The position numbers and the translations under genes are program-made. Below the pieces are notes generated by a model. It was not told the DNA's origin. It did not search any database and was given only the letters and a program-made list of their open reading frames with translations. Positions 1-56,865 of a DNA stretch of 56,865 nt are shown piece after piece. Source of the stretch: a virus. The stretch lies in the IMG/VR virus record IMGVR_UViG_3300023489_000004, positions 1-56,865 of that record. One strand, 5' to 3'. Each line of letters begins with the position of its first letter. Position 1 is the stretch's first letter.

Positions 1-55
1 TCGGTTCCTTAGCTGGATTCTCCGGTATTGTTGGAGCTGCTGGATTAGACATTGC
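1..55. repeat. Terminal 55-nt overlap, identical to 56811..56865 (circular-assembly signature)
   Basis: Exact identity of the window's first and last 55 nt. The same 55-mer also occurs at 56628..56682 inside the tape measure repeat array. Confidence 0.95.
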
Positions 56-28379: not shown

Positions 28380-29321
28380 ATGAATTTTTCGAATGCTATT
28401 CAAACTGCTAAGTTCGCAATTGGACGAGGTGGTCTTGTTCTGAAGAAGTATAGTCCGGAGATCCTTACCGCTGCTGGTGTTATCGGCACGGTAGGTTCGA
28501 CGGTTCTCGCCTGCAAGGCTACTTTGAAGGTTGAGGATATTCTCGACGAGGCTAAGAAGAAGTCGAATCTCATTAATGCTGTCCATAATGGCGAGATTGA
28601 GGTAGACGCTGAGTATACTGACAAGGATTATTCTAAGGATCTGATTGTCAACCGCACCCAGACTGCTGTAAAGCTTATCAAGCTCTATGGTCCTGCTATT
28701 ACTCTCGGTGCTCTCTCGATTACAGCTATTCTCGGCGGTCAGCATATTCTCCGCAAGCGTAATGTTGCAGTCATGGCTGCTTATAAGCTTTGTGAGGAGA
28801 GCTTCAATAATTATCGTTCTCGCGTTAAGGATGAGCTTGGCGAGGAGAAGGATCGCCAGTTTTATTATGGCATGACCGAGGAGACCGTCAAGGATAAGGT
28901 GAAGTCTAAGGACGGTAAGACCAAGACTGTCACTAAGAAGGTAGAGAAGGCTCCGGATCATCTGTATTCTCAGTACGCTCGTTTCTTCGACGAGGCTAAT
29001 ATTAATTGGGATAAGTCTCCTGAGCAGAACATGTATTTCCTTAAGATGGTCCAGAATCAGATGAACGATAAGCTCAAGGCCCGTGGTCATGTATTCTTGA
29101 ACGAGGTATATGACGCGCTCGGTTTCGATCGTTCCGAGGCCGGTCAGCTTGTCGGTTGGGTTTGGGATAAGGACAATACGGCGATGGAGGCCGGAGATGG
29201 ATATATTGACTTCGGTATTTTCGACGGTAGCGACTATGCTAAGCGTGCTTTCGTCAATGGTGATGAGCGTTCTATCCTCTTGGATTTCAATATTGACGGT
29301 ATGATCTACGATCTTATTTGA
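28380..29321 (+). CDS. Membrane-anchored protein, paralogue of 23289..24098
   Basis: See 23289; the C-terminal RGHVFLNEVYDALGF...LVGWVW block looks conserved. Confidence 0.6.
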   Translation: MNFSNAIQTAKFAIGRGGLVLKKYSPEILTAAGVIGTVGSTVLACKATLKVEDILDEAKKKSNLINAVHNGEIEVDAEYTDKDYSKDLIVNRTQTAVKLIKLYGPAITLGALSITAILGGQHILRKRNVAVMAAYKLCEESFNNYRSRVKDELGEEKDRQFYYGMTEETVKDKVKSKDGKTKTVTKKVEKAPDHLYSQYARFFDEANINWDKSPEQNMYFLKMVQNQMNDKLKARGHVFLNEVYDALGFDRSEAGQLVGWVWDKDNTAMEAGDGYIDFGIFDGSDYAKRAFVNGDERSILLDFNIDGMIYDLI

Positions 29322-29419
29322 GATCTAAAAGGTTTTAATGCACCTGGGACTGGGATACGAGAGTTGGATATTCTCAACTATCCTGGTCTTTATTATTGTA
29401 AACCTAAGGAGAATTAACA

Positions 29420-29731
29420 ATGAATTACATTCACACAGCCGGAGCTTCTAAGAACGCCCAGATTGCAACCAATCTTGTATGGGATTATTTTATTAAGCAC
29501 CTTGATGATAGCTATAACCCTACTCTAAAGGATCTTGAGGATGTTGACATTTATGAGGTGTGACATTGCTATATTCTCGGAAACGAGAAGTGGCTTATAG
29601 CTACAACGTATCCCGATGGCATGTATTATGAGGTGACTTATAATAAGTCTAAGGATGAGTGGTATTTCGACGCTTACCAGAAGGTTAAGAATATTAAGGT
29701 AAATTCTGATATTATCAGCAATCTTATTTAA
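29420..29731 (+). pseudogene. Small conserved-looking gene interrupted by in-frame TGA (29561-29563)
   Basis: ...DVDIYEV, then the stop, then HCYILGNEKWLIATTYPDGMYYEVTYNKSKDEWYFDAYQKV in one frame. I think the stop falls where related phage proteins have Trp, but this is from memory. Confidence 0.45.
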
Positions 29732-29748
29732 CAGTATAGGAGCAAACC

Positions 29749-30555
29749 ATGAAACCTTTGGTTGGCACTTTGCTCGGTTTTGTTGGAGGCGTGGCAGTAG
29801 GCGGAATTGCTACGTATTTCGGAATGAAGGCAAAATTCGAGAAGCACGCGAACGATGTTATTCGTGAGTATCGTGAATACAGCAACGGTCGTATTCAGAA
29901 GGCTCAAAGTGAGCTGAATAAGATTATTGCTAGCGAAAAATTTGATGAGGAGGAGTATAAGAAGAAGGTCGCCTCAGAGCCCGAATTTGAGGACTATACG
30001 TCTTATTCGCATGATAACACCTCCGAGGACGATAACGGGCCTTCTAGGGGCATCTCAGAGCCTCTGAAGGGCATTTCTGTTGACTCTGCTAAGGCTATTA
30101 AGGCTGATATGGATGCTTTGAGTCGAGACGTACATGATTGTGACTTTGACGAGCATATGGCTGAGCGAGAAGTTCCTGAGGAAGATATTTCTGAGTATGA
30201 AGACGCTTTGGAGTTCGACCGACAAATGCATGAGGAAGCTCTAGCTGAAGGAAGTTCCGATTTTCCTCGAACGATTTCTGCCAGTGAGATGCTCAACCAA
30301 AAGCAGTGGTACTCGAAAGTGACACTCACATATTATGCAGGTGATGATGTCCTGGCTGATGATCAGGACGAGCCTATTGAGGATCCCAAGGATATTATCG
30401 GCGAGCATTTTAAAGAGTTCTTTGGGATGAATGAAGACGAGCCTGATATCATCTACGTACGTAATGATGATCGGGAAAGTGATTATGAGGTAGCGAAAGT
30501 CGAGGATTCGTATGGCGATCGTTATCCCTCAGAGAATGTCAGCATTAGCGATTAG
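29749..30555 (+). CDS. N-terminally membrane-anchored acidic protein
   Basis: TM LVGTLLGFVGGVAVGGIATYF followed by a highly acidic region. Confidence 0.6.
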   Translation: MKPLVGTLLGFVGGVAVGGIATYFGMKAKFEKHANDVIREYREYSNGRIQKAQSELNKIIASEKFDEEEYKKKVASEPEFEDYTSYSHDNTSEDDNGPSRGISEPLKGISVDSAKAIKADMDALSRDVHDCDFDEHMAEREVPEEDISEYEDALEFDRQMHEEALAEGSSDFPRTISASEMLNQKQWYSKVTLTYYAGDDVLADDQDEPIEDPKDIIGEHFKEFFGMNEDEPDIIYVRNDDRESDYEVAKVEDSYGDRYPSENVSISD

Positions 30556-30563
30556 GAGTTCAT

Positions 30564-31160
30564 ATGAGCGGACTTATTGATACCGCTCGAGCACGACAAG
30601 AGTATTTTGCTTATTTGTGCAGTCTGGTTCATGCTGACGATCCGGACTGCACCTTTTCTAAGCTCATGCTAACTTTATTTAACATGGAGTTCGTATGGAA
30701 TATCGATAATGACGTAAATCGAGCGGAAGATGGACTGAGTCTTCGATCGGATTTTGCCAGGTTGTATTGTGATGGAGATGCAGACTTTGAAGATTGGCTA
30801 TATTCTTCATCGCCTTGTTCTGTTTTGGAGATGCTTATTGCGCTGGCGTATCGAATTGATGAAGACATTATGTGGAATCCTACTAAGGGAAACCGAGTGT
30901 TGCAGTGGTTTTATGAGATGCTCGAGAACCTTGGTTTAGATGGATTGAGTGATGATAATTGGGTGTATCCCGACTCGGATTTTAGGGTTAAAGACATTGT
31001 TATTAGGATGCTTGACCGCACTTACACCCGAAATGGCTTTGGTGGTTTGTTTCCTTTAACTGATGGCCGGTGTGAAGATCAGCGAAAAATTGAGATCTGG
31101 AAGCAGATGAACACCTACTTTATTGAGAAATATGGGGTCGAAGAAGACCTTGATCCGTAA
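30564..31160 (+). CDS. Hypothetical protein
   Basis: 198-aa ORF; RBS AGGAG. Confidence 0.6.
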   Translation: MSGLIDTARARQEYFAYLCSLVHADDPDCTFSKLMLTLFNMEFVWNIDNDVNRAEDGLSLRSDFARLYCDGDADFEDWLYSSSPCSVLEMLIALAYRIDEDIMWNPTKGNRVLQWFYEMLENLGLDGLSDDNWVYPDSDFRVKDIVIRMLDRTYTRNGFGGLFPLTDGRCEDQRKIEIWKQMNTYFIEKYGVEEDLDP

Positions 31161-31486
31161 TTTTTGTGATAAAATGTGATATTTTTGAGTGATAAAAAAC
31201 ATCACATGGACTATCACAGCTATTTTTGGGCTTTGTGAGAATGGTCGAAAAAGGGCAAAAAAGGCCATTTGTGATAGAAATTTTTATCACATATCACAAA
31301 AAACATCACACAACGTTTTGCCTGGTAGATTGGGTTATTTGGACGTATTTGTGATACTTTTTCTTATACTACTATAAAATAATATTTAAAATAGTATATA
31401 TATATATAAAGGTTTCCAGCCCCAAATATCTCAAAAACATCACAAAGCCATTTTTAACAGATTTTAGCTCTTGAAAGGAGGAACCG
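31161..31486. promoter_or_regulatory. Putative replication origin: at least 11 TGTGATA/TATCACA iterons plus a (TA)7 AT-rich tract
   Basis: Heptamer copies in both orientations near 31166, 31175, 31189, 31201, 31212, 31270, 31286, 31292, 31303, 31350 and 31439. TATATATATATATA lies at about 31396-31409. Directly upstream of the replicase gene. Confidence 0.6.
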
Positions 31487-34400
31487 TTGGACTTTTATCG
31501 TATACGGCAGACAATGATCAAAAATCAGGGCCTCAAGATATTTCCTGACTTTCGAATCGGAAGCTATAGGGATTTCATGGCTCGCGGACATTCGTTCTAT
31601 GCTGTCTGGGATCCTAATACTGGTTTGTGGTCTCAGAACGAATTGGATATTCAAAGGATTGTCGATGATGATCTAGATCGTCATTATGAGAAAGTTAAGG
31701 ATAAGTTCGAGACAGATATTTTTGTTGAGTACATGAGTTCGTACAAATCCAGTAGTTGGAAGAACTATACTCAATGGGTTAAGACTCTTCCGGATCAGTA
31801 TCATCCTCTTGATACGAAGTTGATATTCTCGAACCAAGAAGTTAAGCGAGAGGATTACGCTAGCAAGAAATTGCCATATCCTCTTGAGGCTGGAGACTAT
31901 AGCGCTTGGGACGAACTGATTGGTACTTTGTATGAACCTGCCGAGCGCGAGAAAATTGAATGGGCAATCGGATCGATCGTTGCCGGAGCAAGTAAGAGCA
32001 TCCAGAAGTTCTGTGTGTTTTATGGCGAAGCCGGAGCCGGCAAGTCAACTATCCTAGGAATCATTGAGGAACTGTTTGAAGGATATTGTGTCAACTTCGA
32101 TGCTAAGTCTCTTGGATCATCGAGGAATATGTTTGCCACGGAAGCATTTAAGTCAAATCCGTTAGTAGGCGTTCAGCACGATGGCGATCTTAGCAAGATT
32201 GAAGACAACACTCTGCTGAATTCGATCGTTTCTCATGAGAACATGTTGATGAATGAGAAGTATAAATCTAGTTATTCTTCTAAAGTTAACGCATTCTTAT
32301 TTATGGGAACGAACAAACCTGTAAAGATTACAGATGCTAAGTCTGGTATTATTCGAAGACTCATTGATATTTCGCCTAGCGGCAACAAAGTTCCAATCAA
32401 TCGATATTTCGAATTGATGAGTCAGATTCGATTCGAGCTTGGTGCGATCGCATATCATTGTCGAGATGTGTTCGAGAATCTCGGTAAGCATTATTATGAT
32501 GCATATCGTCCGGTTAGCATGATGTTCAAGACTGATGTGTTCTTTAACTTTGTTGAGGATTCATATTTGGTCTTTAGTCAGCAACCATGTGTTACCTTGA
32601 AGCAGGCTTATGATATTTACAAAGAGTATTGTCAAGAAGCTAATGTCGAATACAAGATGCCTAAGTATAAATTCAGGGAAGAGCTCAAGAATTATTTCGA
32701 GAACTACTCTGAAAGGGGTCGAGTTGACGACAAGCAAGTCTGGAACATATATTCTGGATTCTTGAAAGATAAGTTTGAACTTATCAAAAAGCTTGATGAC
32801 GGTGCCGGAGAAGAAGAGATTGAAGTAGCAGAGCCTACTAGAATGGCCCTAGAAGCCTCTGAGAGCCTATTTGATGGCATGTTTAAGGATTGTCCGGCTC
32901 AATATGCCTCTTCTAATGAAACACCCCTTGAAAAGTGGTCTGAGGTCTCCACAACCCTTAACGATATTGACACTCACCAGTTACATTATGTTAAGGTCCC
33001 GGAGAATCATATTGTTATTGATTTTGATTTGAAGAATTCAGATGGAGATAAGGACCAAGATTTAAATTTGGAAGCTGCTGCAAAATGGCCTCCGACTTAT
33101 GCAGAGTTTAGCAAAGGGGGTGCTGGAGTACATCTGCATTATATTTATGATGGAGATCCTAAGAAACTCAGTCGAGTATATTCTGAGGGTATTGAGATCA
33201 AAGTCTTTACTGGGAATAGTTCGTTGCGTAGACGTTTGAGCAAATGTAACGATCTTCCCATTGCCCATATTTCTAGTGGGCTTCCCTTGAAAGGAGAGAA
33301 AGTGATTAATTTCAAAGCTGTGAAAAGCGAGCGATCACTTCGAGAGCAAGTAACAAGGAATCTTAATAAGGAGATTCATCCCGGAACCAAACCGAGTGTC
33401 GACTTTATTTATAAGATTCTTGAAGATGCGTACAAGAGTGATCTTAAGTATGATCTTACTGACATGCGTCCGAAGGTTCTCGCATTCGCTAACAATAGCT
33501 CACACCAAGCGGATTATTGTGTTCGACTTGTAGCCAAGATGCATTTTAAGTCTGAGAATTATGAGAGCGATCCGTCTATTGATTATGACGATCAGAGAAT
33601 CGTATTCTTCGACGTTGAGGTATTTCCTAATCTGTTCCTGATTAACTGGAAGTATGCCGGAGAAGATACGACATGCGTTCGTATGATTAATCCTACGCCT
33701 TCTGAAGTCGAACAACTTATTAAGATGAAGTTAGTTGGCTTCAATTGTCGTAGGTATGATAATCATATTCTGTATGCTCGATATCTCGGTTACAGCAATC
33801 TCGAACTTTATAATCTGAGTCAGAAGATTGTTAACGGTAGTCGAAATGCTTTCTTTGGCGAAGCGTACAATATTTCGTATACTGACGTGTATGATTTTGC
33901 TTCCGCTGCTAATAAGATGAGTCTTAAGAAGTGGGAGATTAAGCTCGGAATTCATCACCAAGAGTTGGGTCTTCCTTGGGATCAGCCGGTTCCTGAAAGC
34001 AAATGGGTTCAGGTTGCAGAGTACTGTGACAATGATGTTATTTCTACTGAGGCAGTCTTCAATCATTTGAGTGGTGACTGGGCTGCACGACAAATTCTTT
34101 CCAAGATCTCCGGACTTAGTGTAAATGATACGACCAACCAGCATTCCACTAAGATTATCTTCGGGAATGATCGTCATCCTCAGGGCAAATTTGTATATAC
34201 TGATTTGTCTGAGATGTTCCCGGGATATACTTTCGATCACGGAAAGAGTTATTATCGTGATGAGCTAGTTGGCGAGGGCGGATACGTTTACGCCAATCCT
34301 GGAATGTATACAGATATTGCATTGCTCGATATTGCGTCCATGCATCCGAGTTCGATTGAAGCATTGAATCTGTTTGGTCCATATACTCAGAGGTTCAGTG

Positions 34401-35545
34401 ATATTAAGCAAGCACGTATTGATATTAAGCACAAGGACTATGAGTTGGCCAAGACCATTCTGGATGGAAAGCTTGCCCCATTTGTCGAAGAGCTTGAGTC
34501 TGGTACGGCATCATATACCAATAAGGATCTTGCTGCAGCATTGAAGACCGTTATTAATTCGGTTTATGGATTGACTTCTGCCAAGTTTGAGAATCCGTTT
34601 AAGGATCCTAGGAATGTTGATAATATTGTTGCTAAACGTGGCGCACTGTTTATGATTAATCTTAAGCATGAGTGTCTTGATCGCGGTTGGCCTGTTGTCC
34701 ATATTAAGACTGATAGTATCAAGCTAGCTAACGCTACTCCTGAGATGATTCAGTTTGTTGTCGATTATGGTAAGAAGTATGGGTATAATTTCGAGCATGA
34801 GGCTACTTATGATCGTATGTGTATTGTAAATAATTCGGTTTATATTGCACATTCGAAGTGGGGCGACCATGCTGGCGAATGGACCGCTACAGGAGCGCAA
34901 TTCGCTCAGCCGTATGTGTTTAAGACTTTGTTCTCTAAGGAACCGATCGAATTTAAGGATCTTTGTGAGACGAAGTCTACTACTTCGGCGCTATATTTGG
35001 ATATGAATGAGACTCTTCGAGATGTAAAGAAAGAAGAGGGAGAGTTAGCTAATCGAGTATTTAATGCAAAACTTGATTTGAGCGATCCGGAACAAAAGAA
35101 GAGACTTAAGCGTCTTAATTCAGAATTTGAAGGTATGTCTGATGATGAGCTGAAGCCGATTATTTCTGAGGGACACTCGTACAACTTCGTTGGTCGTGTT
35201 GGTTCATTCTGTCCTATCAAGAAAGATTGTGGTGGCGGTCTTCTTGTCAGAGAGAAAGATGGAAAGTATTACGCTGTAACCGGAACTACTGGATATCGTT
35301 GGTTGGAATCTGAGACAGTAGAGCTCATGAGTAAGCAAGACGATATCGATCTTGGCTATTATAATTCATTAGTTGATGATGCAATTAATGATATTTCGAA
35401 GTATGGCGATTTCGAATGGTTCGTATCCTTGGAGGATCCCAAGGAAATTGTTCCGCCTTGGTGTACTAAGCCAGAGCTCCGAGATCCTGATCTGAATCAG
35501 TGCGCTACTTGTTCTGAGAATTCTACTTGCGGATTGCTCAATTAG
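31487..35545 (+). CDS. Fused replicase: SF3 (P4/D5-type) helicase, AEP primase-polymerase and family-B DNA polymerase with 3'-5' exonuclease
   Basis: TTG start 5 nt after AAGGAGG. Walker A GEAGAGKST (aa 180-188). AEP motifs IVIDFD (aa 509-514) and GAGVHLHY (aa 545-552). Exonuclease motifs FFDVE, FNCRRYDNHIL and YCDNDV. PolB motifs LDIASMHPS, KTVINSVYG and IKTDS. Confidence 0.8.
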   Translation: MDFYRIRQTMIKNQGLKIFPDFRIGSYRDFMARGHSFYAVWDPNTGLWSQNELDIQRIVDDDLDRHYEKVKDKFETDIFVEYMSSYKSSSWKNYTQWVKTLPDQYHPLDTKLIFSNQEVKREDYASKKLPYPLEAGDYSAWDELIGTLYEPAEREKIEWAIGSIVAGASKSIQKFCVFYGEAGAGKSTILGIIEELFEGYCVNFDAKSLGSSRNMFATEAFKSNPLVGVQHDGDLSKIEDNTLLNSIVSHENMLMNEKYKSSYSSKVNAFLFMGTNKPVKITDAKSGIIRRLIDISPSGNKVPINRYFELMSQIRFELGAIAYHCRDVFENLGKHYYDAYRPVSMMFKTDVFFNFVEDSYLVFSQQPCVTLKQAYDIYKEYCQEANVEYKMPKYKFREELKNYFENYSERGRVDDKQVWNIYSGFLKDKFELIKKLDDGAGEEEIEVAEPTRMALEASESLFDGMFKDCPAQYASSNETPLEKWSEVSTTLNDIDTHQLHYVKVPENHIVIDFDLKNSDGDKDQDLNLEAAAKWPPTYAEFSKGGAGVHLHYIYDGDPKKLSRVYSEGIEIKVFTGNSSLRRRLSKCNDLPIAHISSGLPLKGEKVINFKAVKSERSLREQVTRNLNKEIHPGTKPSVDFIYKILEDAYKSDLKYDLTDMRPKVLAFANNSSHQADYCVRLVAKMHFKSENYESDPSIDYDDQRIVFFDVEVFPNLFLINWKYAGEDTTCVRMINPTPSEVEQLIKMKLVGFNCRRYDNHILYARYLGYSNLELYNLSQKIVNGSRNAFFGEAYNISYTDVYDFASAANKMSLKKWEIKLGIHHQELGLPWDQPVPESKWVQVAEYCDNDVISTEAVFNHLSGDWAARQILSKISGLSVNDTTNQHSTKIIFGNDRHPQGKFVYTDLSEMFPGYTFDHGKSYYRDELVGEGGYVYANPGMYTDIALLDIASMHPSSIEALNLFGPYTQRFSDIKQARIDIKHKDYELAKTILDGKLAPFVEELESGTASYTNKDLAAALKTVINSVYGLTSAKFENPFKDPRNVDNIVAKRGALFMINLKHECLDRGWPVVHIKTDSIKLANATPEMIQFVVDYGKKYGYNFEHEATYDRMCIVNNSVYIAHSKWGDHAGEWTATGAQFAQPYVFKTLFSKEPIEFKDLCETKSTTSALYLDMNETLRDVKKEEGELANRVFNAKLDLSDPEQKKRLKRLNSEFEGMSDDELKPIISEGHSYNFVGRVGSFCPIKKDCGGGLLVREKDGKYYAVTGTTGYRWLESETVELMSKQDDIDLGYYNSLVDDAINDISKYGDFEWFVSLEDPKEIVPPWCTKPELRDPDLNQCATCSENSTCGLLN

Positions 35546-35559
35546 GAAAGGATATTTTT

Positions 35560-35754
35560 ATGGACGATAAGGATACGTCGTTTATGTCTTTGATTTTTGC
35601 AGTAGTGATCATGCTTGCTGTGTGTTGGCTAATTTGTACTTTTGGTACATATTTGGTTTGTGTTTGTTTGGGCATTAACTGGGTTATGTCTTATGGCACA
35701 GCTGTGTTCGTTGCTTTGTTAACTATCAAAAGCGTACTTATTTTGATGAAATAA
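35560..35754 (+). CDS. Small membrane protein
   Basis: Two TM helices; in-frame ATG after AGGAAAGGA. Confidence 0.5.
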   Translation: MDDKDTSFMSLIFAVVIMLAVCWLICTFGTYLVCVCLGINWVMSYGTAVFVALLTIKSVLILMK

Positions 35755-35773
35755 TTTTGAAAGGATTTTTATT

Positions 35774-36253
35774 ATGAACAATCAGAATCGAGTTACTAAT
35801 AACATCTCTATCGAGAACGCGCATATTATGTGGCGTAACTTTGCCGGAAAGCCTTCTCAGTATAATGCTCAGGGTAAGCGTAATTTCTGTGTTCAGCTTG
35901 ATGAGGATCTTGCGCATGAGCTTGAGCGTGACGGTTGGGCAGTTAAGTGGCGCGAGCCTCGTGATCCTCAGGATACTCCGTTTGCGTATTTGCAGGTGTC
36001 TGTGAGCTTCGATGTTATTCCGCCTAACATTTATACCGTCACTTCTCGTAATAAGACTCGACTTACTTCTGAGACTGTTGATATTCTCGATTGGGCTGAT
36101 ATCTCTAACGTCGATCTTATCATTCGTCCTTACAATTGGGAGGTTAACGGCAAGCATGGCGTAAAGGCTTATGTCAAGGCCATGTATGTCACTCTCGATG
36201 AGGACGAGTTTGCCGATAAGTATTCTGATCTTTACGACAGTAATGAGGATTAA
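35774..36253 (+). CDS. Putative ssDNA-binding protein (phage SSB-like)
   Basis: Position in the replication module, an acidic DEDEF..YSDLYDSNED tail and a beta-rich core. The assignment is tentative. Confidence 0.4.
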   Translation: MNNQNRVTNNISIENAHIMWRNFAGKPSQYNAQGKRNFCVQLDEDLAHELERDGWAVKWREPRDPQDTPFAYLQVSVSFDVIPPNIYTVTSRNKTRLTSETVDILDWADISNVDLIIRPYNWEVNGKHGVKAYVKAMYVTLDEDEFADKYSDLYDSNED

Positions 36254-37454
36254 TCTATATCCTCATCAAAGAAAAGCGATAAACGAACTGAGGCCTGGCT
36301 CCATCCTTTGCGGTGGGGTCGGGTCCGGTAAGTCCAGAACTGCCATAGCCTATTATTTTTGCCAAGAGTGTGGTGGTAACATATCTTCTGATGGTGAGTT
36401 ATCGTCGATGACAAAACCAAAGGATTTATATATTATCACCACGGCTCGTAAACGAGATACTTTGGAGTGGGAGGATGAATGCTTACCTTTTTTGATAGGC
36501 AAGAAGGATTCTCCATATTCCATGAACTTCGTTGTGGATAGTTGGAACAATGTAAAAAAGTATCAAGATGTAAAAGATGCTTTCTTTATATTCGACGAAC
36601 AGAGAGTGGTTGGTAGCGGTACTTGGGTAAAAGCTTTTCTTAAAATCGCTAAGAATAATCATTGGATTTTACTTTCTGCTACTCCTGGAGACACTTGGTC
36701 TGATTATATCCCAGTGTTTGTGGCAAATGGCTTTTATAAGAATCGAACAGATTTTCTTCGTCAGCACGCAGTCTTTAATCGTTTTACGAAGTATCCTAAG
36801 ATCGATAGATATGTAGATTGTCGAAGGCTTGAAAAGCATAGAGATTCTATAACTGTCGAGATGCCTTTTAAGAAACATACTGTTAGACATATGATCGATG
36901 TGTTTGTCCCTTATGATGAAAATCTATATTCTGTCATAAGTAAAGATCGATGGAATCCGTTTGAAGATCGCCCAATAAAAGATATCAGTGAAGTTTGTTA
37001 TTCTATGCGCAAAGCAGTGAATTCCGATTCAGCTAGAATCGAACAAGTCATATCTTTGTTGGCGAAGAATCCAAAAGCTATTATTTTTTATAACTTTGAT
37101 TACGAATTAGACATGCTTCGAACTATGTGCTTCGAGAATCATATTTCTTGGGGTGAATGGAATGGGCACAATCACCAATCGATTCCAGAAGGAGACCGTT
37201 GGGTATATTTGGTTCAATACACAGCCGGTGCGGAAGGATGGAATTGTATAAAGACCAATGTTGTTATTTTCTATTCGTTGAATTATTCTTATAAAATCAT
37301 GGAACAAGCTTCTGGTCGAATAGATCGAATGAATACTCCATATTTTGATTTGTACTACTATCGTCTTCGATCAAGATCTAGCATTGACTCGGCGATATTC
37401 AAGACATTGATGAATAAGAAAACATTCAACGAAAAGAAATTTCTTGGCGTATGA
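36243..37454 (+). CDS. SF2 (SNF2/DEAD-like) helicase
   Basis: LYPHQRKAI, GGVGSGKS (motif I), FIFDEQ (motif II), SATPG (motif III), QASGRIDR (motif VI). Start uncertain (the track begins at 36171). Confidence 0.7.
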   Translation: MRINLYPHQRKAINELRPGSILCGGVGSGKSRTAIAYYFCQECGGNISSDGELSSMTKPKDLYIITTARKRDTLEWEDECLPFLIGKKDSPYSMNFVVDSWNNVKKYQDVKDAFFIFDEQRVVGSGTWVKAFLKIAKNNHWILLSATPGDTWSDYIPVFVANGFYKNRTDFLRQHAVFNRFTKYPKIDRYVDCRRLEKHRDSITVEMPFKKHTVRHMIDVFVPYDENLYSVISKDRWNPFEDRPIKDISEVCYSMRKAVNSDSARIEQVISLLAKNPKAIIFYNFDYELDMLRTMCFENHISWGEWNGHNHQSIPEGDRWVYLVQYTAGAEGWNCIKTNVVIFYSLNYSYKIMEQASGRIDRMNTPYFDLYYYRLRSRSSIDSAIFKTLMNKKTFNEKKFLGV

Positions 37455-37457
37455 GGC

Positions 37458-37482
37458 TCGCGTAAAAATAACATGCTATAAT
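37458..37482 (+). promoter_or_regulatory. Early-type promoter motif followed by a short hairpin/T-tract leader (37483-37530)
   Basis: CTCGCGTAAAAATAACATGCTATAAT followed by AGAAGGAG, as in P1-P3. Confidence 0.5.
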
Positions 37483-37544
37483 AGAAGGAGTAGAATACGC
37501 CTAGGGGCTAAATCTGCTCCTTTTATTTTTCTGAAAGGTTTTTT

Positions 37545-37838
37545 ATGCCAAAAGAAAATTCCTTTCAAGCACAACTCATAAAAGATTTGAAGATACTGTT
37601 TCCTGGGTGCATGGTTTTAAAGAATGATGCAAACTATATTCAAGGGATTCCGGATCTTCTTATTTTGTTTAATGATCGATGGGCAATGCTTGAATGTAAA
37701 CGAACCGAAAAAGCATCGCATAGACCTAATCAGGAATATTATGTTGACCTTCTAGGAAAGATGTCTTATGCGGCATTCATATACCCTGAGAATAGAGAGG
37801 ATATTTTGAATGAACTTCAACAAGCATTACGATCTTGA
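37545..37838 (+). CDS. VRR-NUC-like PD-(D/E)xK nuclease
   Basis: GIPDLLILFNDRWAMLECK...NQEYY. Confidence 0.6.
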   Translation: MPKENSFQAQLIKDLKILFPGCMVLKNDANYIQGIPDLLILFNDRWAMLECKRTEKASHRPNQEYYVDLLGKMSYAAFIYPENREDILNELQQALRS

Positions 37839-38367
37839 GGGTAAACATGCTTTTCTTAGTGCAAGTCAGCACGCTTGGGTTAACTATGATGAAGGCAAGT
37901 TGATTCGAGTATATTCTAATTTGCTGGCTGCAGCTCGAGGAACTAAACTTCATGAGTTTGCTTGTGAAGCTATTAAGTTGGGAGTTCGACTTCCAGATAA
38001 TAAGCAAACTATTAACATGTATGTTAACGATGCTATTGGTTATAAGATGACTCCCGAGTTGGTTCTTAAGTATTCCAATAATGCTTTTGGAACGGCTGAT
38101 GCTCTTTCTTTCAAGAAGGATCTTTTAAGGATTCATGATTTGAAAACTGGTAGATCAAAAGTTTCTATGGTTCAGTTGGAGATCTATGCGGCTCTATTCT
38201 GTCTAGAGTATGACGTAAAGCCAAATGATATTCAGATGGAGTTGCGGATTTATCAATCAAATGAAGTTCTGGTACACAATCCAGATCCTGATGATATTTT
38301 CCACATCGAAGACAAGATTATTTTGTTCGATCAGCGCATTGAAGAACTCAAGCAAGAGGAGGAATAA
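37810..38367 (+). CDS. PD-(D/E)XK (Cas4/RecB-like) exonuclease family protein
   Basis: HAFLSASQHAW N-terminus, GTADAL and IHDLKTG, QLEIYA. Confidence 0.5.
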   Translation: MNFNKHYDLEGKHAFLSASQHAWVNYDEGKLIRVYSNLLAAARGTKLHEFACEAIKLGVRLPDNKQTINMYVNDAIGYKMTPELVLKYSNNAFGTADALSFKKDLLRIHDLKTGRSKVSMVQLEIYAALFCLEYDVKPNDIQMELRIYQSNEVLVHNPDPDDIFHIEDKIILFDQRIEELKQEEE

Positions 38368-41066
38368 TGAACGATGACGAATTAATGCATTATGGTACTC
38401 CTCGACATTCTGGTCGATATCCTTGGGGTAGTGGCGAGAATCCATATCAATCATCCACTGGTCTTTATGGGATGGCCAAACAGCTAAAAAGCCAAGGCAT
38501 GTCTGATAAAGAAATTGCTGAGTCATTCGGCATGAGTACTCGAGAGTATAAATCAGCATATTCTAATGCAAAGAATGAAGTTCGTGCAGCAAATCGTGCT
38601 GAGGCTCTTAGGCTAAAGGATAAGGGATATTCTAACACCGCTATTGGTAAACGAATGGGCGTTAACGAATCTACTGTTCGCAGCTGGATGGATGAGGATA
38701 TTGCTGAGCGATCAAGTATTTCTAAAAACACAGCAAAAGCTTTAAAGAGCGCTGTAGATGATAAGAAATATATTGACATTGGCGGTGGCGTTGAGAATCA
38801 AATGGGTATTTCTCGTACCGCTCTCGATAATGCCGTTAAGATGCTGAAAGATGAGGGTTATACCGTTCATTATATTCAGACAGAACAACTTGGAACTGGT
38901 CATAAGACCTCCATCAAGGTTCTAGCTCCTCCCGATACTACATATTCTGAAGTATGGAACCATAAAGCCGATATTGAGTTTCCTGGATTTCATTCTGAAG
39001 ATAAAGGCCGAACCATTGATAAAATCGGAAAGCCTGTTAGTATTTCCTCTAAACGCATAAAAATTAATTATGCTGAAGAAGGAGGAAAAGACAAAGATGG
39101 TGTTATCGAACTTCGTCGAGGCGTAGATGATATTTCTTTGGGTAAAGCCAAGTATGCTCAGGTTCGAATCGCTGTAGATGGTACCCATTATTTAAAGGGC
39201 ATGGCAATGTATCGTGATGATATGCCAGATGGTGTTGACATTATATTTAACACTAACAAGGCAAAAGGTACTCCCATGCTTGGCGAAAAGGATAATTCAG
39301 TCCTAAAGCCTATGAAGAAAGATCAGGATAATCCTTTCGGAGCAACTATCAAAGGTGAACGAGAGCTTATTCTTGCTCAGCGATATTATACCGACAAGAA
39401 CGGAAAGCGTCAGCAATCGGCAATTAATATTGTAAACGAGGAAGGCGATTGGAATACCTGGCGAAAGAGCTTATCTTCGCAGATGTTATCTAAGCAAAGT
39501 CCTATGCTGGCTAAGAAGCAATTAAAACTCGCTTATGATCTTAAGCAGGATGAGTTTGATAGTATTATGAAACTCGAGAATCCTGTTATTCGCCAGCAAC
39601 TTCTTGATAAATTCGCAGATGGATGCGATTCGGCATCAGTTCATCTCAAGGCCGCTGGTCTTCCTCGTCAAGCATCAAAGGTTATTCTTCCATTTCCTTC
39701 GATGAAAGAAAACGAAGTTTATGCTCCATCATTTCGTGATGGTGAAGAAGTCGTATTAATTCGATATCCTCATGGCGGAACGTTTGAGATCCCTCGCCTT
39801 AAGGTAAACAACAAAGTTCCAGACGCTAAGAAGACACTTCATAATGCTCAAGATGCAATTGGTATTAACGCCAAAGTGGCTGAGCGATTATCTGGAGCAG
39901 ACTTTGATGGCGATACTGTTCTTGTTATTCCTACAAGCACTGCTAAAATTAAAACTTCTAAGCCTTTGGATGGGTTAAAAGACTTCGACCCTCAACGAGA
40001 CTATAAAGCATATCCTGGTATGCCTGAAGTAAAGGGTTCTGGTTTTAATAAACAGCAACAGATGGGCAATGTTTCAAATCTTATTACAGACATGACCATC
40101 AAAGGTGCTACGCCTGATGAATTGGCTCGTGCTGTTCGCCATTCTATGGTTATTATCGATGCTGAGAAACATAATCTTAATTATAAACAATCGGCTATTG
40201 ATAACAATATTGCTGAGTTGAAAAAGAAATATCAAGGCGGAAGCAATCGCGGAGCTTCTACGATTATTTCTAGAGCCAGTGCTACAGCATATGTTCCGGT
40301 TCGTAAGGAAATAACGAACACGAAATATATGACTGACGATGAGAAGAAGCGATATTCTAAAGGCGAAAAGATATATCGCGAAACTGGTGAAACTTATATT
40401 TCTAAGAAGACTGGAAAAGAAGTCAAACGTATTTCTAAATCCACAAAAATGGCCGAGACTTCTGATGCGAATACTTTATCTTCAGGATATTTAATCGAGA
40501 CCGTATATTCTGAACATGCCAATAAATTAAAGGCCCTAGCAAATAAAGCTCGAGCCGAATCTAGGTCTACTGATTATATTCCATATTCAAAAGAAGCGCA
40601 TGTAAAATATAAAGATCAAGTAGACTCTTTGAATTCTAAGCTAAATATAGCATTGAAGAATAGGCCCCTTGAGCGTAAGGCCCAGCTTATAGCTAATGCT
40701 AAGGTTAAGAATGTATATGCGGCCAATCCAGACATGGATTCGGATGATCTAAAGAAGCTTAAAGGTAGGTGCTTAACAGAGGCCCGCTTACAGACGGGTG
40801 CTTCTAAGCAACAGATTAAGATAGAGCCTAAAGAATGGGAAGCTATTCAGGCTGGTGCTATCTCTACCAATAAGCTTAAGTCTATTGTACAGAACTCAGA
40901 CCTTGATGTACTAAAGCAGTTAGCTATGCCTCGTGAGATGCGTGGTGTAACACCAGCACAAGAGTCAAGGATCAAGGTTCTTGAGAGTCGTGGATACACT
41001 CTTGCTGAGATAGCTGATGCTGTTGGTGTGTCTACTGGTACTATTACCAATGTACTGCAAGGATAG
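38367..41066 (+). CDS. Single-subunit two-barrel RNA polymerase (YonO/RdRP-like) with terminal HTH modules
   Basis: Beta-like barrel motif GTHYLKGMAMYRDDMPDGVDIIFN (aa 272-295). Beta'-like barrel VVLIRYPHGGTFEI...AERLSGADFDGDTVLVIP (aa 462-522). HTH-like segments at aa 44-65, 86-108 and 875-899. Confidence 0.75.
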   Translation: MNDDELMHYGTPRHSGRYPWGSGENPYQSSTGLYGMAKQLKSQGMSDKEIAESFGMSTREYKSAYSNAKNEVRAANRAEALRLKDKGYSNTAIGKRMGVNESTVRSWMDEDIAERSSISKNTAKALKSAVDDKKYIDIGGGVENQMGISRTALDNAVKMLKDEGYTVHYIQTEQLGTGHKTSIKVLAPPDTTYSEVWNHKADIEFPGFHSEDKGRTIDKIGKPVSISSKRIKINYAEEGGKDKDGVIELRRGVDDISLGKAKYAQVRIAVDGTHYLKGMAMYRDDMPDGVDIIFNTNKAKGTPMLGEKDNSVLKPMKKDQDNPFGATIKGERELILAQRYYTDKNGKRQQSAINIVNEEGDWNTWRKSLSSQMLSKQSPMLAKKQLKLAYDLKQDEFDSIMKLENPVIRQQLLDKFADGCDSASVHLKAAGLPRQASKVILPFPSMKENEVYAPSFRDGEEVVLIRYPHGGTFEIPRLKVNNKVPDAKKTLHNAQDAIGINAKVAERLSGADFDGDTVLVIPTSTAKIKTSKPLDGLKDFDPQRDYKAYPGMPEVKGSGFNKQQQMGNVSNLITDMTIKGATPDELARAVRHSMVIIDAEKHNLNYKQSAIDNNIAELKKKYQGGSNRGASTIISRASATAYVPVRKEITNTKYMTDDEKKRYSKGEKIYRETGETYISKKTGKEVKRISKSTKMAETSDANTLSSGYLIETVYSEHANKLKALANKARAESRSTDYIPYSKEAHVKYKDQVDSLNSKLNIALKNRPLERKAQLIANAKVKNVYAANPDMDSDDLKKLKGRCLTEARLQTGASKQQIKIEPKEWEAIQAGAISTNKLKSIVQNSDLDVLKQLAMPREMRGVTPAQESRIKVLESRGYTLAEIADAVGVSTGTITNVLQG

Positions 41067-41079
41067 AAAGGAGAATGAC

Positions 41080-41319
41080 ATGGTGATGCTTACTACTGTT
41101 GACAATCCTTTTGATCCTATCACACAGTTCGATGATTGGTATGAGTATGATGAGTCGAAAGGCTATTGTACTTCTGGTTATGTGGCTCGAATAGCTAAGA
41201 CTAGTGATGATCTATCAAAGAATGATCAAGACCTAGCCATCCAGGCGGCTATCGATGAGATTATTAGTATGAATCCTGATGGTTTTTATAAAAAAGTGAC
41301 GGATTCTACACAAAAATAA
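41080..41319 (+). CDS. Hypothetical conserved phage protein
   Basis: ATG 6 nt after GAAAGGAG; NPFDPITQFDDWYEYD. Confidence 0.55.
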   Translation: MVMLTTVDNPFDPITQFDDWYEYDESKGYCTSGYVARIAKTSDDLSKNDQDLAIQAAIDEIISMNPDGFYKKVTDSTQK

Positions 41320-41340
41320 GACATTTTATATTGTCTTACC

Positions 41341-41378
41341 GGGGAGGGAGGGGTCTCTCGCGAAACTACCCCCTCCCC
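41341..41378 (+). other. GC-rich hairpin with TCGCGA in the loop
   Basis: GGGGAGGGAGGGG pairs with CCCCCTCCCC; the loop is TCTCTCGCGAAACTA. Followed by a polypyrimidine tract. Confidence 0.5.
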
Positions 41379-41442
41379 ACATCGCCGGCCTCTTTCTCTC
41401 TTCTCCAGCGGGATTTTTTCTGAAAACTATCGGAGGTTATTC

Positions 41443-41964
41443 ATGCCTGATACGTGGAAGAAAATACCAGGTTTTTCTCAATATTCTGTATCTAGTTCCG
41501 GAGAAGTTCGGAATGATGTACGAGATTTGATAAAAAAGCCGTTTGTCACTAGTAATGGTTACGCAAATGTTGATTTGTATCGAGATGGGAAGAGGTATAA
41601 ATTCCGGGTTCATCGTTTGGTTGGAGAATTATTCGTTCCAAATCCGGACGAATTAGATTTTGTAAATCACAAAGATGGAAACAAACTAAATAACGATTAT
41701 TCCAATTTGGAATGGGTTACGGCTAGTTATAATATGAAACATGCCTATTCTACTGGCTTGGCAAAACCTAGTAAGGGAATGCTTGGAAAAAAGAATCCTA
41801 ATGGTGGTCGAAAAGGACATCCGGTTCGAGTAATTGAGACTGGCGAAGAATTTCCCAGTATTACTGCTTGTGCCAAAGCCATTAACGGAAACGATAGGCA
41901 TATTTGCGATTGTTTATCTGGTCGTCAATCTTTTCATAAAGGATACTCGTTTGAATTGATTTAA
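41443..41964 (+). CDS. HNH homing endonuclease (NUMOD4 plus HNH_3 type)
   Basis: WKKIPGFSQYSVSSSGEVRN...HRLV...VNHKDGNKLNNDYSNLEWVT. Confidence 0.8.
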   Translation: MPDTWKKIPGFSQYSVSSSGEVRNDVRDLIKKPFVTSNGYANVDLYRDGKRYKFRVHRLVGELFVPNPDELDFVNHKDGNKLNNDYSNLEWVTASYNMKHAYSTGLAKPSKGMLGKKNPNGGRKGHPVRVIETGEEFPSITACAKAINGNDRHICDCLSGRQSFHKGYSFELI

Positions 41965-41967
41965 AAA

Positions 41968-42054
41968 GCCGGAATGGCGGAATTGGCATACGCAGGAGAC
42001 TTAAAATCTCTCGTCATATTTGACTTGTGGGTTCGAATCCCACTTCCGGCACCA
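41968..42054 (+). tRNA. tRNA-Leu (anticodon UAA), type II with long variable arm, CCA encoded
   Basis: Acceptor GCCGGAA/TTCCGGC. Anticodon stem GGAGA/TCTCT with loop CTTAAAA. Variable-arm stem GTCA/TGAC. T-arm GTGGG-TTCGAAT-CCCAC. Confidence 0.85.
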
Positions 42055-42073
42055 TTTATAAGGAGTAAACCAA

Positions 42074-42646
42074 ATGCTACTTGAAGATACAGCAATCAAG
42101 TTTAAGTCCCAGTACAAGAATTTGATTGTTCCTTTTAACGAGAATCAACTTCAGCCTTGTAGTTATGACTTGACTCTCGATAAAGATCTACTAACGTTCG
42201 AGTTTGCATCGAATTCGTGTCCGCCCGATGCATTTATTACGGCTTATGACAAGCAAGTTCATGGTATCGATTACCAATCGATCGATCTTTCTACTCTCAA
42301 AGATGAGATCTATGTTCTTCAGCCGAATCAGTTTATCATTGCTTCAACGCAAGAGACGGTAAACATGCCGGATGACATTGCTGGCCGCTTCGAGGGAAAG
42401 TCTTCTCTCGGTCGTCTTGGACTCACCACCCATGTTACGGCAGGTTTCATTGACGCTGGTTTCTCAGGTCAGATCACACTCGAAATGAAGAACGAGAATC
42501 GCTTTCCCATTTGGATTAAGCGAGGAATGAAGATTGGGCAAATCTGCTTCTTCAAAATGAATGGTCGAGCAAGGCATCCGTATGGATCCGAAGGTCTCGG
42601 CTCACATTACAACAATCAAAATGGACCAACTCCCGCAAGGTCTTAA
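42074..42646 (+). CDS. dcd: dCTP deaminase (dUTPase superfamily)
   Basis: QPCSYDLTL...GRFEGKSSLGRLGLTTHVTAGFIDAGFSGQITLEMKN. Confidence 0.8.
   Translation: MLLEDTAIKFKSQYKNLIVPFNENQLQPCSYDLTLDKDLLTFEFASNSCPPDAFITAYDKQVHGIDYQSIDLSTLKDEIYVLQPNQFIIASTQETVNMPDDIAGRFEGKSSLGRLGLTTHVTAGFIDAGFSGQITLEMKNENRFPIWIKRGMKIGQICFFKMNGRARHPYGSEGLGSHYNNQNGPTPARS
42615..42629 (+). promoter_or_regulatory. Late-region motif copy (ATCAAAATGGACCAA)
   Basis: Exact 10-mer core in the 3' end of dcd, 186-195 nt upstream of the putative small terminase gene (start GTG 42801 or 42810). Confidence 0.3.
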
Positions 42647-56100: not shown

Positions 56101-56865
56101 TGGACTTATGGCTGGCACAGGCATGGCTATAGTGGCCGATTCATTGAAGAACATTGTTGGGCCGTTTAAGCAAATCGCATCTATGTCCTGGGAAGAAATA
56201 ATTAGAGGCTTAGTCGGCATGGGCGGTGCTCTGGGCGAGTTGGCAGGTATTACTGGCCTCTTTGGAAAGCTAGCCGGATTCTCAGGTATTGTTGGTGCCG
56301 CAGGATTAGATATTGCTGTGCAAGCACTTAAGCCTACTGCTGATGCTCTTAATTCCTTAGCCGGTCTTGATTGGGAATCAATTAAGGTAGGACTCGTTGG
56401 TATCGGAGGAGTATTAGCCGAATTAGCGACAATTAGTGGCTTATTTGGAAAACTAGCCGGATTCTCGGGCATCGTTGGTGCTGCAGGATTGGATATCGCA
56501 GTTCAGTCACTTAAACCTACTGCTGATGCGCTTAATTCTTTAGCTGGTCTTAGTTGGGAATCAATTAAGGTAGGACTCGTTGGTATCGGAGGAGTATTAG
56601 CCGAATTAGCAACAATTAGTGGCTTATTCGGTTCCTTAGCTGGATTCTCCGGTATTGTTGGAGCTGCTGGATTAGACATTGCTGCTCAGTCACTTAAACC
56701 AGTGGCCGAGTCACTTAATTCCTTAGCGGGTCTTGGTTGGGACTCAGTGGTTAGTGGCTTAGTTGGTCTTGGAGGAGTATTAACAGAATTAGCTGTAATT
56801 AGTGGCTTATTCGGTTCCTTAGCTGGATTCTCCGGTATTGTTGGAGCTGCTGGATTAGACATTGC
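53174..56865 (+). CDS. Tail tape measure protein, N-terminal part (3'-open; continues at nt 1..2300)
   Basis: ATGA overlap with the upstream gene. The core YQLSQALATGTVKLMDWNSVVNAGMGGQVFQDAL is the TP901-type tape measure signature. No stop before the window end. Confidence 0.9.
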   Translation, partial: MSSVDNRVVEMQFENKQFESGVAKTLSSVKKLKEGLNFKDSAESLKNLGSVSKNVDMSNLIGAVESIKDRFSTLGIIGMTVLQNIANKAISVGSTLTKSLTLQPITEGFAEYETQMNAIQTILSNTRSEGTNIQQVNSALDELNHYADQTIYNFTEMTRNIGTFTAAGVDLNTSVNAIQGIANLAAVSGSSSQQASTAMYQLSQALATGTVKLMDWNSVVNAGMGGQVFQDALKETSKELGTGAEAAIKANGSFRESLQTGWLTSQVLTETLKKFTTSGAMEWVANYCDVSKDAVQSAYDQAYANSKATDTIGKQKDAIDGCAEALAKQTGKSKDAIKETLSLAYDAQDAATKVKTFSQLIDTLKEALGSGWTKSWQIMIGDFEEAREMWTNVSVVLSDMINKSADARNALLQDWANLGGRKAIIDGIATAFNNIVSVAGAVSKAFREVFPTVTAQQLMNISNGFKTLMEKMKPSEQTLSNIGRVAKGVFSLLDLAGKAVFNLAEAFGKFAASSAIASLAKAIGDIVLKLSDYLVELDKGATKINVFSKAMDALIDVVSGFINKAGQMATSIREKIVGVLKDAKDTIIDFVNGVKKETSEADNNSNDLVKLIAVIGAVGAALKKANIVSILQKIGTTFLKFFGKKKASSLFDDLVKPFQESMDTIANSLQNLTKSVKVGQLLAIAAAVGILAGSIKTLGEMDPIQLGIGLAGIVAAFEALTFGFKQLSIMTGKMNTKGTLKSAGVMIVMAEAMKILAKAMKILADLDFQQIAQGVAGISILMNQMSKSISKLDGISVKAGAIAETLVMALAVKSLVKALKSISDLKPTQIAKGLGGLAGCMFMLVKSLNSLDGLSINAGVIVETIAVAVSVKTLVESLKSISDLKPTQIAKGLGGLAGCLVVLIESLKAVNKTSGSLKNIAILISLTASVKSLAKTLKTISSMSWDEIKKGLFGMAGAFAELVIVMKALPKVQGFDGLMAGTGMAIVADSLKNIVGPFKQIASMSWEEIIRGLVGMGGALGELAGITGLFGKLAGFSGIVGAAGLDIAVQALKPTADALNSLAGLDWESIKVGLVGIGGVLAELATISGLFGKLAGFSGIVGAAGLDIAVQSLKPTADALNSLAGLSWESIKVGLVGIGGVLAELATISGLFGSLAGFSGIVGAAGLDIAAQSLKPVAESLNSLAGLGWDSVVSGLVGLGGVLTELAVISGLFGSLAGFSGIVGAAGLDI
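56276..56865 (+). repeat. High-identity 183-nt (61-aa) tandem repeats in the tape measure gene (copies at 56276, 56459, 56642 and 56825; the last continues at nt 56-197)
   Basis: Units GFSGIVGAAGLDIAxQxLKPxAxxLNSLAGLxWxSxxxGLVGxGGVLxELAxISGLFGxLA. Degenerate units of about 59-61 aa extend back to about 55.4 kb. A 69-nt exact repeat occurs at 56614-56682 and 56797-56865. Confidence 0.9.
56811..56865. repeat. Terminal 55-nt overlap, identical to 1..55
   Basis: Exact identity. Confidence 0.95.

Follow-up and report, generated by a model that had tools for sequence, protein, structure and literature searches.

The gene at 31487–35545 and its product

The stretch of DNA analysed here (the window) is the whole of the IMG/VR virus record IMGVR_UViG_3300023489_000004, 56,865 nucleotides (nt) long and with a GC content of 41%. 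On its plus strand, at 31487–35545, lies a complete replicase gene of the HelPrimPolB type, also described as GP55-like or "four-in-one", which we assigned by a full-length match to the family phrog_4210 and by alignment with GP55 of Lactococcus phage 1706. The open reading frame (ORF) encodes 1352 amino acids (aa) plus the stop, and its translation contains no internal stop. The start codon is TTG, with a Shine–Dalgarno sequence (AGGAGG, 31476–31481, plus strand) placed before it at a spacing of 5 nt. The N-terminus MDFY is common to GP55 and to relatives whose genes begin at ATG or GTG, which suggests that the TTG is the true start.

A first-pass annotation, made from the sequence alone, had read an unusual order of modules in this ORF: a P4/D5-type superfamily 3 (SF3) helicase, then a primase-polymerase of the archaeo-eukaryotic primase (AEP) superfamily, and finally the exonuclease and polymerase of a family-B DNA polymerase (PolB). 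The order and each of the three assignments are supported by profile searches, Foldseek comparisons of AlphaFold2 (AF2) models, and end-to-end homology. The positions given for the motifs also agree, without exception, with arithmetic on the translation. GEAGAGKST occupies residues 180–188 (nt 32024–32050), IVIDFD ends at nt 33028 (residue 514), and GAGVHLHY spans nt 33119–33142; FFDVE is found at nt 33605–33619, LDIASMHPS at nt 34325–34351, KTVINSVYG at nt 34544–34570, and IKTDS at nt 34703–34717. The strings IIRRL, FNCRRYDNHIL, and YCDNDV are present in the translation as well.

The protein aligns from end to end with GP55 of phage 1706

The fusion of a helicase, a primase, and a PolB was first described in gp55 of Lactococcus phage 1706 (Kazlauskas et al. 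2016, PMC4889955), in a study in which the primase came first in 94% of primase-helicase fusions. The corresponding group of polymerases was later named HelPrimPolB, placed in the EpsilonN-like clade as a divergent member in which MotifC and the KxY motif are unusual, and reported to be prevalent in metagenomes (Kazlauskas et al. 2020, PMC7544198). GP55 itself (1317 aa) has been purified and presented as "A four-in-one replicase" (Zhang, Lu, Zhu, Huang 2025, NAR 53:gkaf542, PMC12205980). It is a dimer that acts as a DNA polymerase, a 3′–5′ exonuclease, an RNA primase, and a helicase dependent on UTP/dTTP. It replicates single-stranded M13 DNA (ssM13) de novo, with 5′-CCAAC-3′ as the preferred priming site and initiation with GTP, and it requires a new alpha-helical domain (aHD) for priming (PMC12205980). 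Mutation of its residue K189 abolishes helicase activity (PMC12205980).

In a BLASTP alignment of 1350 positions (890 bits), the window protein and GP55 are 39% identical, with 57% positives; the alignment runs from residue 1 to about residue 1308, almost to the C-terminus. The phrog_4210 family, annotated "DNA polymerase", matches residues 1–1317 (E=0). The two proteins are of nearly equal length and have the same succession of SF3 helicase, PriS-like AEP, aHD, PolB exonuclease, and polymerase. They also share a divergent polymerase motif A (S-L/M-H-P) and a divergent motif C (KTDS). To place the residues mapped by mutagenesis in GP55, we used this alignment together with a family alignment of 54 homologues (35–86% identity with the window protein, which was aligned in two halves), to which all statements of invariance below refer unless noted. 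The helicase residue K189 of GP55 corresponds to K186 of the window protein, the primase residue D509 to D514, the aHD residues Y655 and F667, needed by the primase, to Y655 and F667, the exonuclease residues D712/E714 to D709/E711, and the polymerase residue D949 to D948. All the residues essential in GP55 are thus kept in the window protein, and they are invariant or nearly so among the homologues.

The differences between the two proteins are the modest identity, the TTG start in the window, and two features of the window protein, i.e., a short insertion at about residues 1228–1262 and a C-terminal tail that contains cysteines. The genomes of phage 1706 and of the window are syntenic across the replication and structural modules, but only 40 nt lie upstream of the gene in phage 1706, whereas the window has there a repeat-rich spacer of 326 nt.

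Other full-length homologues, about 53% identical over 97–98% of the protein, are annotated "DNA primase/polymerase" in phages of Arthrobacter (Mudcatvirus), Gordonia, Streptomyces, and Enterococcus. They occupy the same position in the replication module, although their hosts and GC content differ; in Arthrobacter phage Dynamite, the gene is preceded by 23 nt and not by a repeat-rich spacer. The primase-helicases of SaPI5 (7ola), vaccinia and monkeypox virus (MPXV) (D5/E5), African swine fever virus (ASFV) (C962R PrimPol), and NrS-1 are fusions of the D5/P4 class. They have the same SF3 fold and AEP motifs I and II, but their AEP domain precedes the helicase and they lack a PolB, whereas in the window protein the AEP domain follows the helicase. 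Fusions of the D5/P4 class have a helix-bundle or PriL-type accessory domain where the window protein and GP55 have the aHD (PMC12205980). The only other one-polypeptide combination of helicase, primase, and polymerase reported is Pas55 of Actinoplanes phage phiAsp2, which joins an SF3 helicase to a DnaG primase and a PolA (PMC4889955). By this description it is analogous, and not homologous, in two of its three modules (the DnaG-type primase and the family-A polymerase), which sets it apart. Taken on sequence grounds, the window protein is best described as a further member of the known HelPrimPolB family and an orthologue of GP55, ordinary if fairly divergent.

The helicase region belongs to the D5/P4 class

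Residues 1–430 (31487–32776, plus strand) form the helicase region, delimited with Pfam, PHROGs, the AF2 model, Foldseek, and profile comparisons. Its N-terminal domain is beta-rich (about residues 1–117) and precedes an SF3 ATPase core of the D5/P4 type (about 118–340) and a helical, winged-helix-like D5_C part (about 343–430), after which comes an acidic disordered linker (434–450). The core contains the Walker A motif (residues 180–188, GEAGAGKST, plus strand, with K186 as the equivalent of GP55 K189), a Walker B motif around D232/D234, the sensor N276, and the arginine finger R290/R291. K186, D232, N276, and R290/R291 are invariant.

When the whole protein was searched against Pfam, DUF5906 alone scored above its cut-off (residues 178–291, 44.1 bits against a cut-off of 27.6 bits). 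Pox_D5 fell just under its own (residues 350–406, 19.9 bits against 21.4 bits). Among the PHROGs, primase-helicase families match residues 118–419 with their helicase portion. The AF2 model of residues 1–698 has a mean predicted local distance difference test (pLDDT) score of 86, with disordered linkers at 434–450 and 604–612, and its Foldseek matches in the PDB are the SaPI5 primase-helicase (7ola), the ASFV PrimPol, MPXV E5, and the C-terminal region of NrS-1, with E-values between 7e-12 and about 2e-8. The top 50 matches, all of them primase-helicase entries, were obtained without query ranges, and a match to the AEP domain is not separable in them from one to the helicase. The family profile matches 7ola with an E-value of 5.5e-12. 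These results support the assignment of the N-terminal module to the D5/P4 class of SF3 helicases.

The primase domain and the alpha-helical domain

The PriS-like AEP primase domain covers approximately residues 455–603 (32849–33295, plus strand) and was identified with phrog_3022, its motifs, the AF2 model, and hhalign. Motif I is IVIDFD (D512 and D514, the latter equivalent to D509 of GP55), motif II is GGAGVHLHY (H549 and H551), and motif III is probably IEIKV (E570). Neither motif I nor motif II varies within the family, the residues D512, D514, H549, and H551 included, and E570 is invariant too. In the model, motif I lies on a beta-strand (residues 508–513) and so does motif II (548–554), as expected of an AEP core.

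Several profile comparisons point to the same domain. The AEP portion of phrog_3022, N-terminal in that family, falls on residues 476–571, and the Pfam family Prim-Pol (PF09250) matches 12 of 20 family members (best E-value 8.9e-5), with a weak AEP-TOTE match in 8 of the 20. The comparison with the N300 fragment of NrS-1 by hhalign (E-value 1.9e-4, probability 47.5%) pairs IDFD with IDLD and SKGGAGVHLH with SPSGDGLHVV. A weak stretch of the whole-family profile falls on the AEP domain of SaPI5, where the same two motifs pair with LDID and SGTGLH.

The aHD follows at approximately residues 613–685 (33323–33541, plus strand), as judged from the AF2 model and the alignment with GP55. It consists of four helices (615–626, 634–650, 658–669, and 675–683) modelled with block-mean pLDDT values of 76–93, and it carries Y655 and F667, the equivalents of residues essential for primase activity in GP55. 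Its location between the AEP and PolB modules, in place of PriL or of a helix-bundle domain, fits the published description of GP55. We searched 1.84 billion representative sequences with the AEP and aHD taken as a single module (residues 455–690) and obtained 465 matches at E<=1e-3, 225 of them at E<=1e-30. Most of the best 150 matches are proteins of 1240–1520 aa with the module at about residues 450–700. Among these best matches the module appears almost confined to the replicase architecture, and the shorter proteins look like fragments.

The polymerase module

The 3′–5′ exonuclease subdomain of the PolB occupies approximately residues 700–870 (33584–34096, plus strand; the boundaries, drawn from phrog_1252, the alignment, and Foldseek, are approximate). 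Its motifs are ExoI FFDVE (D709 and E711), ExoII NCRRYDNH (D758), and ExoIII YCDNDV (D850). The polymerase subdomains extend over approximately residues 871–1320 (34097–35446, plus strand), as delimited by the model, Foldseek, profile, and alignment, with motif A LDIASMHPS (D948), motif B KTVINSVYG (K1020), and motif C IKTDS (D1076). D709/E711, D758, D850, D948, K1020, and D1076 are all invariant. The protein ends in a variable tail with four cysteines (35447–35542, plus strand), which has low model confidence and is not conserved in the family.

PHROGs placed a polymerase family on residues 683–898, and the AF2 model of residues 671–1352 is confident (pLDDT 90, predicted template modelling score 0.81). 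The top 50 Foldseek matches of this model are all family-B polymerases, with a probability of 1.00 and E-values from 2e-16 to 2e-13, and include archaeal PolB (9N, KOD), Escherichia coli Pol II, the ASFV polymerase, and Pol alpha. The family profile also matches E. coli Pol II (E-value 2.6e-7). We considered a protein-primed (phi29-like) or primer-independent PolB and rejected it: the same 50 matches contain no entry of the phi29 or piPolB type, and all are polymerases primed by RNA or DNA.

The fusion is a single gene

A long ORF in a metagenome-style circular assembly could be an assembly or sequencing artefact that joins two or three genes, for a helicase, a primase, and a polymerase. The sole grounds for suspecting one here are the nature of this assembly and its terminal overlap, an exact direct repeat of 55 bp shared by both termini of the window (1–55 and 56811–56865), which at the same time indicates a circularly closed assembly and a phage genome that is complete at about 56.8 kb. 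The same uninterrupted layout recurs in independent assemblies and in GenBank phages. A search of 5.8 billion proteins found at least 8000 protein clusters (at 90% identity) matching the replicase; the best 120 of these are all full length (1231–1412 aa, with at least 95% of the query covered). The closest cluster listed (P0001) is 97% identical, has 1352 aa, and contains 505 member sequences. Another IMG/VR locus (L009) is 100% identical over residues 1–698, so that independent assemblies carry the ORF at 97–100% identity. Among GenBank phages, tblastn matched 361 records, from phages of Arthrobacter, Gordonia, Streptomyces, Enterococcus, Lactococcus, and other hosts; 252 of these, genome records of cultured phages, have one place that aligns with 80% or more of the protein. 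The best GenBank matches listed are annotated "DNA primase/polymerase" or "DNA polymerase". Furthermore, full-length recombinant GP55 is active. An artefact is thereby effectively refuted, and we regard it as excluded for practical purposes.

The protein as the probable replicative enzyme of the phage

Given its kinship with GP55 and its membership of the HelPrimPolB family, the gene very probably encodes the replicative enzyme of this phage. The SF3 helicase would unwind the duplex and give strand displacement, the PriS-like AEP and the adjacent aHD would make short RNA primers, and the PolB would extend these primers and proofread through its 3′–5′ exonuclease. By analogy with GP55, we infer the four activities, priming with RNA rather than DNA, unwinding driven by UTP/dTTP, and a dimeric rather than hexameric state. 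Downstream of the gene are a single-stranded DNA (ssDNA)-binding/annealing protein (PF24083, 35774–36253), a superfamily 2 (SF2) helicase (36171–37454), and an exonuclease (37810–38367), as in orf66–69 of phage 1706. These neighbours would complete a replication-recombination module.

Several observations weigh against the replicase reading. The first concerns the primase, which is the weakest call by sequence and rests on weaker profile matches, motif conservation, and the mutagenesis of GP55. The AEP segment of the window protein itself has no significant match in Pfam (0 families), and a search of PDB sequences with a profile of this segment (residues 455–612) found none, even at E<=10. The second concerns the polymerase motifs. 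Motif A has His953 where the steric-gate Tyr of SLYPS is usual (S951–S955, nt 34337–34351), and motif C is KTDS where E. coli Pol II has DTDS, with Lys1074 in place of the first Asp (nt 34706–34717). Finally, an identity of 39% to GP55 leaves room for quantitative differences in nucleoside triphosphate preference, in the recognition site of the primase, and in oligomeric state.

The substitutions in motifs A and C are family-wide, with K1074, T1075, D1076, and S1077 invariant, and GP55 shares both the His and the Lys yet is an active DNA polymerase. We found no mention of the word "steric" in the GP55 paper, and the effect of these substitutions on sugar discrimination looks unexplored.

The poor detection of the primase by sequence would also suit a different role for this part of the protein, namely that of a degenerate, non-catalytic spacer in a helicase-polymerase that is primed by a host primase, by recombination, or by a protein. 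The putative motif III also has a Glu (in IEIKV) where Asp is usual, and the ssDNA-binding/annealing protein and the exonuclease adjoin the gene. Yet the acidic residues of motif I and the histidines of motif II do not vary across 54 diverse homologues, and both motifs align with the catalytic motifs of the NrS-1 and SaPI5 primases. In GP55, RNA primers are no longer made after the mutation D509A or after mutations of Y655 and F667, and the enzyme starts replication of ssM13 de novo. Priming by a protein finds no counterpart either among the top 50 Foldseek matches, which include no phi29-like protein-primed polymerase. We consider a degenerate primase highly improbable.

A role outside genome replication, as a repair or recombination polymerase or as the cargo replicase of a selfish element, seems slighter still. 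PrimPol-helicase fusions are commonly carried by integrative elements or belong to defence or conflict systems, which is one ground for it; the AEP-TOTE matches mentioned above are another. Against this, a second DNA polymerase or primase is absent from the ten neighbouring ORFs scanned (28380–42646), the gene stands where synteny with 1706-like phages places it in the replication module, and Kazlauskas et al. treat the fusion as a replicative set (PMC4889955). The replicative role of a GP55 orthologue thus remains the reading that we favour.

The repeat-rich spacer upstream of the gene

The replicase gene is preceded by a spacer of 326 nt (31161–31486), AT-rich (GC 0.30) and rich in repeats, that is a candidate origin of replication or operator/promoter. 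Of the 21 TGTGATR heptamers in the window, ten fall in 31165–31444, in both orientations, and an element of the form (TA)n..AAAG is found at about 31390–31412, some 80–90 nt before the start codon.

We compared spacers across loci in a fixed interval of 420 nt upstream of each match to the replicase. At least four copies of a heptamer occur in this interval in 19 of 85 loci, which include four near-identical copies of the window phage and a few others whose heptamer is AT-rich and unlike TGTNAYA. Relatives with a replicase 59–97% identical to that of the window have the same spacer layout with other heptamers, among them TGTGATA, TGTTACA, TGTGACA, TGTGCCA, TGTTACG, and TGTTACC. We noted a spacer of this kind in the loci L003 (2821–3000), L006 (867–1200), L007 (815–1200), L011, L013, L014, L020, L027, L031, L032, and L040. 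The window and these loci have between 4 and 11 copies of a heptamer of the TGTNAYA form, whose exact sequence varies between related phages. Most of the spacer loci also have a TATATA-type element 67–110 nt before the start codon; four do not. The repeat-rich spacer is found in roughly one in five of the closest relatives and is absent in phage 1706 and in Arthrobacter phage Dynamite.

The start codons of the replicase gene differ along the same lines. In the subgroup with the repeat-rich spacer, we observed non-ATG starts, TTG or GTG, in the window (31487), in L003 (3001), and in L006, L007, and L008 (1201 in each), and ATG starts in phage 1706 and Arthrobacter phage Dynamite. The non-ATG start may serve as a translational down-tuning of this large enzyme.

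The first-pass annotation had called the upstream region an iteron-rich origin. The repeats are real and recur in the closer relatives, but the word "origin" exceeds the evidence. The GC skew stays positive along the whole window and does not turn near 31.3 kb, which makes it uninformative on the position of an origin; a scan of the spacer for sigma-70 promoters, with one site against 2.7 expected by chance, is equally uninformative on a promoter. If the spacer were read by the replicase itself, one might look for a part of the protein that varies with the repeats. A hint in a first comparison that residues 81–120 track the repeat type was gone with 13 loci and 10 same-type pairs. Across these 13 loci, no region within residues 1–1140 of the replicase co-varies with repeat type (the maximal excess identity is +0.06). 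The 198-aa protein encoded upstream does not track the repeat type either. If the spacer is an origin, recognition by a separate specificity factor would be likelier than by the replicase itself, since no replicase region tracks the repeats. That the spacer at 31161–31486 is the replication origin of a subgroup of 1706-like phages, at which the all-in-one replicase loads, is a tentative proposal that we hold to be rather unlikely, and an operator or promoter role is at least as likely. Were the spacer an origin, the subgroup would represent a minimal system of one origin and one replicase protein.

Other genes downstream of the replicase

Immediately after the exonuclease, at 38367–41066 (plus strand), is a gene for a protein of 899 aa with a full-length match to phrog_4291, "RNA-dependent RNA polymerase" (RdRP; E=0). 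The protein has domains resembling helix-turn-helix (HTH) or sigma-region-4 domains at both ends and a weak match to the Pfam family RdRP (PF05183) at residues 503–605. The Arthrobacter relatives have a conserved copy, annotated in some as RdRP and in others as HTH protein. It may be a two-barrel phage RNA polymerase of the YonO/QDE-1 kind. Further downstream are an HNH endonuclease (41443–41964) and a dCTP-deaminase/dUTPase-like gene (42074–42646). When the ORFs of at least 100 aa in the window are listed and those overlapping a longer one are set aside, almost every large ORF lies on the plus strand.

Place of the window protein in the family

The first-pass annotation had suggested that such a chain would be a near-complete replisome in one protein. 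The idea has experimental backing in the homologue GP55 (PMC12205980), but the architecture is no novelty: the fusion has been in print since 2016 (PMC4889955). The architecture is already known, having been published in 2016, named in 2020, and characterised biochemically in 2025. Its interest lies in a single polypeptide able to unwind, prime, synthesise, and proofread, and its potential as an amplification reagent is also already in print and was tested on GP55. Our findings leave the current understanding of these enzymes unchanged. What the window adds is a fairly divergent member, at 39% identity to GP55; the conservation of functionally mapped residues across a very large and mostly metagenomic family; and one subgroup of phages in which a repeat-rich spacer stands before the gene.

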